DNA from: Escherichia coli
GTDB lineage: Bacteria; Pseudomonadota; Gammaproteobacteria; Enterobacterales; Enterobacteriaceae
Length of the DNA stretch: 64,000 nucleotides
NCBI RefSeq assembly: GCF_016026235.1
Contig: NZ_CP065613.1
Reading direction: 5' to 3' (one strand)
The notes under the pieces were generated by a model, which saw only the letters and a list, made by a program, of their open reading frames with translations, ran no database searches and was not told the origin of the DNA. Below are positions 6,549 to 6,653 of the stretch, in pieces (position 1 is the first letter of the stretch; every line of letters begins with the position of its first letter). The position numbers were made by a program, and so were the translations under genes.

Positions 6549-6653
6549 TTAGTCGCTGCCGAAGAGATCGCGGGTGTAGACTTTATCTGCCACATCCTTA
6601 AGCTCTTCTGCCATACGGTTGGAAATAATGAGGTTGGCCTGTTGTTTGAAGGT
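6549..6653 (-). pseudogene. 3'-terminal remnant (about 34 codons) of a second ugd allele
   Basis: Minus-strand translation ...[35 protein letters not shown] parallels the C-terminus of the intact ugd at 7898-9064 (...[25 protein letters not shown]); similarity stops abruptly at about 6653. Confidence 0.8.

Follow-up and report, generated by a model that had tools for sequence, protein, structure and literature searches.

We analysed 64,000 nucleotides (nt) of Escherichia coli DNA (assembly GCF_016026235.1, contig NZ_CP065613.1), here called the window, to which all coordinates refer. Beside the O-antigen chain-length regulator gene wzzB, this DNA carries a short fragment of ugd, separated by gla from an intact copy of the same gene. 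A preliminary description had interpreted the fragment as a scar of recombination that brought in gla and ugd, and probably gnd and the O-antigen cluster with them. Two kinds of ugd are distinguished below by labels coined in this analysis: class A is the ordinary E. coli ugd, class B the ugd linked to gla. The gnd end of the gla-ugd block is called its left end and the wzzB end its right end. The locus is composed as follows (aa, amino acids; bp, base pairs).

hisC to hisIE, hisIE ending at 5236, plus strand: strain-background side of the locus, beyond wzzB
5422–6402, minus strand: wzzB (NCBIfam NF012015, 597 bits against a cutoff of 267)
6403–6548, minus strand: class A ugd-wzzB spacer of 146 nt, including an orphaned ugd terminator hairpin at 6514–6542
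6549–6655, minus strand: ugd remnant, a pseudogene fragment with the last 34 codons and the stop (plus 2 nt) of a class A ugd
6655/6656, no strand: illegitimate junction, TTGTTTGAAGGTGG followed by TCTAATAGTCA; at this point ordinary ugd has GGTGG followed by CGAGATCACG
6656–6827, plus strand: gla upstream region, 172 bp non-coding, right end of the foreign-looking block
6828–7832, plus strand: gla, encoding a 334-aa extended-SDR NAD-dependent epimerase
7846–7881, no strand: palindromic terminator, perfect 17+17, -23.9 kcal/mol, z = -7.1
7898–9064, minus strand: intact class B ugd, 388 aa, G+C fraction 0.42 (NF011631, 798.6 bits against a cutoff of 757)
9065–9279, minus strand: class B gnd-ugd spacer, left part of the block
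10617–12023, minus strand: gnd, left limit of the block

The ugd relic beside wzzB

As the preliminary description had it, the minus strand encodes here a non-identical copy of the last 34 or so codons of ugd. In an ungapped alignment of 6549–6655 with 7898–8004 of the intact gene 75 of 107 nt were identical, a value equalled by none of 100,000 shuffled sequences (best shuffle, 46), which excludes chance similarity. An independent repeat search returned the pair 6549–6650 and 7898–7999 with 73% identity, in the same orientation and 1,349 bp apart. Over the 100 nt past the remnant, identity to the matching stretch of ugd was 31%, the random level.

The adjacent intact gene is not the closest relative of the remnant, which was 93–99% identical to class A ugd alleles and 70–73% identical to its neighbour. 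When 5,426 complete E. coli genomes were searched with a query covering spacer and remnant (6403–6655), 4,158 of them gave a match at the ugd 3′ end and the ugd-wzzB spacer, with a top identity of 94.5% among the matches listed. Separate searches with the remnant and the intact ugd, which had been proposed as a check, returned different classes: the remnant query matched in these 4,158 genomes, the intact ugd at 90% identity or more in 277. Among the partial matches listed from genomes without gla, all that reached the break stopped at 6655 (query position 253), except one at 6653 (query position 251); homology thus ends at the same nucleotide in independent genomes. Similarity had been said to end abruptly at about 6653. 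The abruptness was confirmed, and the position is corrected to 6655/6656.

The remnant occupies the ordinary place of ugd beside wzzB, as had been supposed. Its stop codon lies 146 nt from the wzzB start at 6402, a spacer equal in length to that of genomes without gla and alignable to theirs in sequence. A distance of about 80 bp had been given before and does not hold for this start; only from the start of the longest open reading frame (ORF), at 6459, is the distance about 90 nt. We take 6402 as the true start because the match to the WzzB profile starts only with residue 20 of the 345-aa ORF; at the equivalent position in related genomes, the wzzB genes annotated by the RefSeq pipeline PGAP measure 978–981 nt. 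Within the spacer, a hairpin followed by a T-run (6514–6542; -16.5 kcal/mol, z = -5.5) gave a terminator-like match and is the terminator of the lost resident ugd.

With significant homology to part of a gene at the normal chromosomal position of that gene, the fragment has the properties of a gene remnant. Judged by NF011631 and by a full-length ORF of about 388 aa with NAD-binding and catalytic domains, it is no functional ugd. Translation of 6549–6680 on the minus strand revealed in-frame stops directly upstream and no start codon for the fragment, and in related carrier genomes it is flagged by PGAP as a partial pseudogene (‘hypothetical protein; incomplete; missing N-terminus’). A small ORF was considered and rejected: the single in-frame ATG would give a 21-aa peptide, and no obvious ribosome-binding site was seen on inspection of the sequence. 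The stretch 6549–6655 is a non-functional relic of the 3′ end of a class A ugd.

The intact ugd belongs to the other class. It was about 75% identical in nucleotides and 84% in amino acids to the ugd genes of K-12, O157:H7, S88 and O26:H11, a foreign-looking ancestry that is in keeping with the earlier proposal of gla and ugd having been brought in by recombination. Among gla carriers, class B ugd genes were 95–100% identical. Class B Ugd shared 90–91% of its amino acids with Ugd of Citrobacter, Enterobacter and Kluyvera, class A Ugd 84% with the same proteins. Across complete genomes, ugd was at least 90% identical to the window copy in 277, 80–90% identical in 670 (LF82 included) and 60–80% identical in 2,900. 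The first number is about that of the gla carriers, and in E. coli class B occurs almost exclusively beside gla. The ugd of SWHEFF_68 (locus L008, 4647–5813) switches cleanly from class B to class A near nt 400, as judged from 182 informative sites, and is accompanied by a class B gnd-ugd spacer in a locus without gla. About 12% of genomes (the 670 above, of which SWHEFF_68 was verified) probably carry an A/B mosaic ugd of this kind. In nucleotide sequence, the two allele classes of E. coli ugd differ by about 25%. The palindrome at 7846–7881 is a bidirectional terminator serving the convergent class B ugd and gla.

A junction shared by gla-carrying E. coli

The junction was aligned base by base in the window and 20 other gla carriers (21 sequences), among them O8:H28, O113:H21, O139:H1, the O143-type strain D10, O155:H21, O158:H23, O169:H41, O178:H19 and E. 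coli C. In all 21, class A homology ended at TTGTTTGAAGGTGG and was followed by TCTAATAGTCA or a derivative of it. Because similarity halts abruptly against unrelated gla-upstream sequence, the join at 6655/6656 is regarded as illegitimate. A crossover inside the old ugd 3′ end had been suggested previously; the join does lie inside ugd, but a homologous crossover is contradicted by the unrelated sequence that abuts it.

A query spanning the junction was covered in 274 of the 5,426 complete genomes, which represent many serogroups. Of the same genomes, 278 have a gla at least 95% identical to that of the window and 276 the arrangement wzzB-remnant-gla-ugd. Serogroups sharing the scar include O8, O113, O139, O143, O155, O158, O169 and O178. 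The scar is old, and practically all E. coli with gla have it, which amounts to about 5% of the complete genomes. Its interpretation as a junction specific to this strain or to its O antigen had to be given up, the same breakpoint being found in all 20 other carriers across many serogroups. The junction sequence can serve as a simple marker of gla carriers, and the scar offers a stable and datable reference point where the E. coli chromosome recombines most.

Three forms of the junction were observed. The window and four other loci have a long form. A 17-bp deletion (TGTTTGAAGGTGGTCTA) across the junction, corresponding to 6640–6656 of the window, was found in 11 of the 20 other carriers in a pattern that does not track the ugd or gla phylogeny, and 1-nt deletions occur in the remnants of some other carriers. 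A further form, F3, was present at four loci (O8:H28, locus L005, 4300–4360, and loci L103–L105; about 6650–6705 of the window). It has the same breakpoint, and on the gla side its first 50 or so nt share about 60% identity with the common form, whereas the flanks are 90–97% and gla 97% identical. The first 8 nt of F3 resemble the continuation of ugd (AAGATAAC versus GAGATCAC, 6 of 8 over a very short stretch). About 9 nt of extra ugd homology in F3 would shift the true junction to near 6664, and this may be so, although the stretch is too short for a firm statement.

Origin of the block and of its junction

The divergent block consists of the class B spacer, class B ugd, the terminator, gla and the 172 bp upstream of gla, about 2.65 kb. 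Like ugd, the gnd-ugd spacer is dimorphic, with about 45% identity between the A and B versions (unalignable) and 91–95% among carriers; over its 35 nt closest to ugd, spacer B is similar to Citrobacter sp. FP75. From the gnd terminator and the gnd 3′ end onward, the two locus types are homologous again, and the block is for this reason defined without gnd. Moreover, gnd was about 95% identical to K-12 gnd in 8 of 9 carriers compared; in D10, which has the O143 type of the window, the value was 91.5%. The import of gnd and the O-antigen cluster together with gla and ugd, as first proposed, is at odds with these data.

The ends of the block were searched for signatures of mobile elements. No direct or inverted k-mers longer than 7 nt were shared between them, no relevant repeats were reported, and inverted repeats, a target duplication and a transposase or recombinase gene were not found there. 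Insertion of the block as an insertion sequence (IS), transposon, integron or island was rejected on the basis of these terminal features.

In the search for a donor, the Gla protein was compared, by a method based on peptide patterns, with a single genome from each bacterial species. The best proteins among the matches listed were 83–87% identical (Enterobacter cloacae, Citrobacter sp. FP75, C. werkmanii, Kluyvera and E. asburiae). The native order hisIE-wzzB-gla-ugd-gnd was found in Citrobacter sp. FP75, C. werkmanii, Enterobacter cloacae, an Enterobacter metagenome-assembled genome and E. asburiae, and the same order minus wzzB in Kluyvera; gla and ugd are convergent in all six genomes. These loci resemble that of the window in gene order, in orientations including the convergent gla and ugd, and in the 90–91% identity of Ugd. 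At the nucleotide level, matches from other genera reached 72–78% for gla and at most 80% for ugd; because identity is only 72–80%, the Citrobacter, Enterobacter and Kluyvera genomes are not the donor, and the matches listed from the sampled species representatives contained none. In the six non-Escherichia Enterobacteriaceae, the interval from wzzB (in Kluyvera, from hisIE) to gla is free of ugd fragments.

The history that we consider very probable is a single, ancient, illegitimate import of the gla-ugd block over a resident class A ugd, of which an inert relic was left. A block of foreign ancestry of about 2.65 kb would have been joined into an ordinary his-wzzB-ugd-gnd locus and have replaced most of ugd. 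At its right end, the join would be non-homologous and lie inside ugd, some 34 codons from the end of the gene, at 6655/6656. The left end was probably formed by homologous exchange in or near gnd, a mechanism suggested by the homology that resumes at the gnd terminator. The event would have happened once and long ago, the scar being inherited across serogroups. Later, the wzzB-remnant-gla-ugd module would have been moved and reshuffled by homologous recombination, with crossovers within ugd giving rise to the A/B mosaics and crossovers in gla or its upstream region to the O143 boundary of the window described below. Exchange would also have taken place in the remnant and spacer, whose haplotypes recur as functional ugd 3′ ends. 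The remnant itself would do nothing and persist as a short, neutral sequence flanked by the needed wzzB promoter region and gla. In these terms, the capacity to make UDP-galacturonate that the gla-ugd module carries would have entered E. coli via one illegitimate event, next to a second, unrelated import in 14 genomes.

Several points weigh against this history. The term ‘foreign’ rests on divergence and synteny, since the sampled species representatives yielded no donor. What defines the left end of the block is a zone of resuming homology rather than a mapped crossover. Base-by-base reading covers 21 junctions, the state of some 250 other genomes being deduced from BLAST coverage. The local hyper-divergence of F3 cannot be accounted for by a single recent origin. 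Furthermore, class B diversity within E. coli reaches about 5% in ugd, which corresponds to species-level divergence; so high a diversity implies either that the block is very old in E. coli or that the junction was formed in an unsampled relative.

The latter alternative assumes that a relative with an E. coli-like ugd acquired gla and so came to have ugd′-gla-ugd. E. coli would later have taken over the whole arrangement with its scar on more than one occasion (forms F1 and F3), through homologous recombination with gnd on one side and the remnant or wzzB on the other. Both the scenario and this route are unlikely in our judgement. They would explain why F1 and F3 share a breakpoint although the 50 nt next to it are only about 60% identical, with gla at 97%, and agree with the high class B diversity and the donor search. 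However, remnants and spacers are 93–100% identical to E. coli class A haplotypes, which fits a junction made in E. coli but would also result from crossovers in the remnant, and the six other enterobacterial genomes that have gla natively lack a remnant.

The variation of the remnant combines signals of decay with signs of continued exchange. Among the 21 remnants, 18 variants were counted over the last 90 nt, 13 synonymous and 5 non-synonymous. When sharing was tested against six class A genes, 6 variants were common to the class A sample, all of them synonymous; 7 more synonymous ones were found besides. Each of the 5 non-synonymous changes occurs in one to three loci: the D-to-N change of the window is also present in GCA_014582935.1 and strain A37, and its V-to-L change in GCA_014582935.1. 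The spacer-remnant haplotype of F3 was 98.8–99.2% identical to the intact ugd 3′ end of genomes without gla. These comparisons suggest a probably decaying pseudogene that appears still to exchange sequence with functional class A alleles by crossovers within the 107-bp homology or beside it, the synonymous bias of its variants being attributed to inheritance from such alleles.

Retention of the fragment for a use of its own, be it as an insulator or terminator that shields the wzzB promoter region against antisense or read-through transcripts, as the source of a small-ORF product or as a patch of homology selected for because gla modules can recombine through it into ordinary backgrounds, is very unlikely. 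The orphan terminator still folds strongly, the common remnant polymorphisms are all synonymous, and haplotypes matching functional alleles make crossovers in or near the remnant seem real. On the other hand, a start codon and ribosome-binding site are absent, stops lie upstream, the 5′ end is variably deleted and private non-synonymous changes accumulate; the terminator at 7846–7881, moreover, already halts the ugd and gla transcripts. A more specific and somewhat speculative possibility, which we raise tentatively, is that the remnant serves a portable gla-ugd module as its homology arm on the right. When the module enters an ordinary E. coli, the 107-bp ugd tail may be the first homology to the right of gla. 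If this were true, crossovers in it would keep the wzzB and the ugd-tail haplotype of the recipient, which would explain both the varied ugd-tail haplotypes that match functional alleles and the fact that the scar is never lost. A fragment of 107 bp would then help to decide which lineages gain or lose O antigens containing galacturonic acid (GalA).

A more recent boundary was found elsewhere in the locus. The O-antigen cluster has wzx and wzy of the O143 family and is 99.5% identical in the window and D10. The two loci diverge by 3–6% over his, wzzB, the spacer and the remnant and are near-identical from about 6,760 through ugd. Because divergence drops there, the boundary of the DNA shared by the O143 type is placed at about 6,760–7,200, in the gla upstream and 5′ region. 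In window coordinates, it lies about 100–500 bp to the right of the scar and not at it. Moreover, junction form and ugd allele assort independently: O113 has the long and O155 the short form with ugd genes 99.2% identical, and the window has the long and D10 the short form with ugd genes 99.9% identical.

These data bear on the idea that the scar records a recent O-antigen replacement in this very strain, with a crossover in ugd bringing in gla, ugd, gnd and the O143 cluster in a single step. It is true that background-type DNA (his, wzzB, spacer) lies on one side of the remnant and foreign-type DNA (gla, class B ugd) on the other. This notwithstanding, the same junction exists in 274 genomes of many serogroups, gnd lies outside the divergent block, the join is illegitimate, and the window and D10 share the O143 cluster yet differ in junction form, with near-identity beginning only at about 6,760; little credence is left for the idea. 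An in-situ tandem duplication of ugd, with gla inserted between the copies and decay of the one next to wzzB, would account for two ugd-derived sequences in the same orientation 1,349 bp apart and can practically be dismissed, since the copies are not mutual closest relatives (70–73% identity to each other against 93–99% of the remnant to ordinary ugd) and the intact one falls into a class of its own, preceded by a spacer that is not homologous and encoding a protein nearer to those of other genera.

Gene remnants at exchanged polysaccharide loci are a well-known kind of feature. Nelson and Selander are said to have described, in 1994, Klebsiella- or Citrobacter-type gnd alleles in E. coli, transferred between genera and hitch-hiking with the flanking O-antigen locus. 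The present case is similar in that ugd, beside the O-antigen locus, occurs as divergent classes and intragenic mosaics. It differs in that an illegitimate join left a physical fragment of ugd and that the import added gla instead of merely swapping an allele. According to a review of anomalies in the O-antigen clusters of E. coli, Shigella and Salmonella (Liu et al. 2019, PMC7685785), gene remnants occur in nine clusters, and anomalies of this sort are traces left by genetic events. Like those, the ugd remnant is a truncated sugar-pathway gene at the edge of an exchanged polysaccharide locus. In contrast to them, it is found on the ugd-wzzB flank, beyond the galF-gnd cluster, is not serogroup-specific and stems from an old instead of a ‘relatively recent’ event. 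A description of the remnant or of the A/B dimorphism of ugd was not found in a full-text search of the literature, which did not reach subscription-only papers. The current view of O-antigen locus evolution is unchanged by the scar, which provides a clear worked example of it.

gla, its second import and neighbouring elements

Gla matched PDB entry 5u4q with E = 1e-189 and entries 6zl6 and 6zla, of the UDP-glucuronate 4-epimerase of Bacillus cereus, with E = 1e-43, as well as the Pfam families Epimerase and GDP_Man_Dehyd. By fold and sequence similarity it agrees with UDP-glucuronate 4-epimerases (Gla/Uge), and none of the NCBIfam equivalog cutoffs was reached. We regard its product as a putative UDP-glucuronate 4-epimerase. 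The O antigens of O113 and O143 presumably contain GalA, and together with strain LL004 they provide a circumstantial tie between gla and GalA-containing O antigens.

In the gla upstream region, a dyad (ATACCG...CGGTAT, about 6731–6763) is partly conserved 5′ of gla in Citrobacter sp. FP75 and Kluyvera (75–81% over 32–41 nt). The dyad folds no better than shuffled sequence and could be a candidate regulatory site. A promoter scan of this region returned no match to a consensus sigma-70 promoter on the plus strand.

For E. coli LL004, a published table names the gene of a 334-aa ‘NAD-dependent epimerase’ between ugd and wzz gne (PMC8657804, Table 3). According to the same paper, gla of LL004 maps elsewhere, yet the O unit contains D-GalA; the gap between the epimerase gene and wzz is 409 bp. 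Such a gap corresponds to the short junction form, and position and size of the gene also fit gla. The gne of LL004 is probably a mis-annotated gla, and a 334-aa epimerase between ugd and wzzB deserves annotation as gla.

A second, independent gla was found in 14 E. coli genomes, for example LD26-1 (NZ_CP047665.1; locus L007, 2339–9853), which has a wzy of the O100 family. As in the window, gla and ugd lie between wzzB and gnd. In contrast, this gla is 75% identical in nucleotides and the WzzB 63% identical in amino acids to those of the window, the whole his-wzzB-gla-ugd-gnd stretch is divergent (his genes about 87% identical in nucleotides to K-12), and debris of IS30, IS600 and IS3 lies between wzzB and gla. 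No ugd remnant was detected in the wzzB-gla interval of the LD26-1 type. This import apparently used distant homologous flanks and left no scar. The LD26-1 stretch is roughly equidistant from E. coli and Enterobacter.

One further element interrupts the window locus at the left side of the block:

9280–10571, minus strand: ISEc60 (IS4-like), 1,292 bp, with a 431-aa transposase ORF

It sits in the hairpin loop of the gnd terminator, flanked by a 12-bp target duplication (GAGGATTTCTCC) at 9268–9279 and 10572–10583. The insertion was absent from D10 and all other gla carriers examined; it is a later event in the lineage of this strain and no part of the scar. Near-full-length copies of ISEc60 (at least 80%) were found in only 14 complete E. 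coli genomes, some of them on plasmids of about 290 kb. CFSAN029787, one of the few other strains with ISEc60 copies, is enteroinvasive. Taken with the O143 cluster, these copies may point to a background of enteroinvasive E. coli O143 or Shigella boydii type 8. Over 3901–9300, contigs of the draft assemblies GCA_014155105.1 and GCA_001907545.1 were 100% identical to the window, and GCA_018228825.1 was so up to the end of its contig (3901–8905); among the complete E. coli genomes compared, none was identical.

Within the O143 cluster, a fragment of an IS481-family transposase lies at about 15212–15619; its counterpart in D10 is a frameshifted integrase-core pseudogene. The hisIE-wzzB spacer of the window (5237–5421) comprises 185 nt with a palindrome resembling repetitive extragenic palindromic elements (GCCGGATAAG...CATCCGGC) and about 95 nt in other genomes, a difference that is a length polymorphism. 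In the O8:H28 strain BMH-17-0027 (locus L005, 1–4078), mannan genes of the O8/O9 type (rfbK, manC-like) follow past wzzB at the usual place of hisIE, and the gla-ugd-gnd side runs into a different glycosyltransferase cluster. In this strain gla may serve a second polysaccharide.

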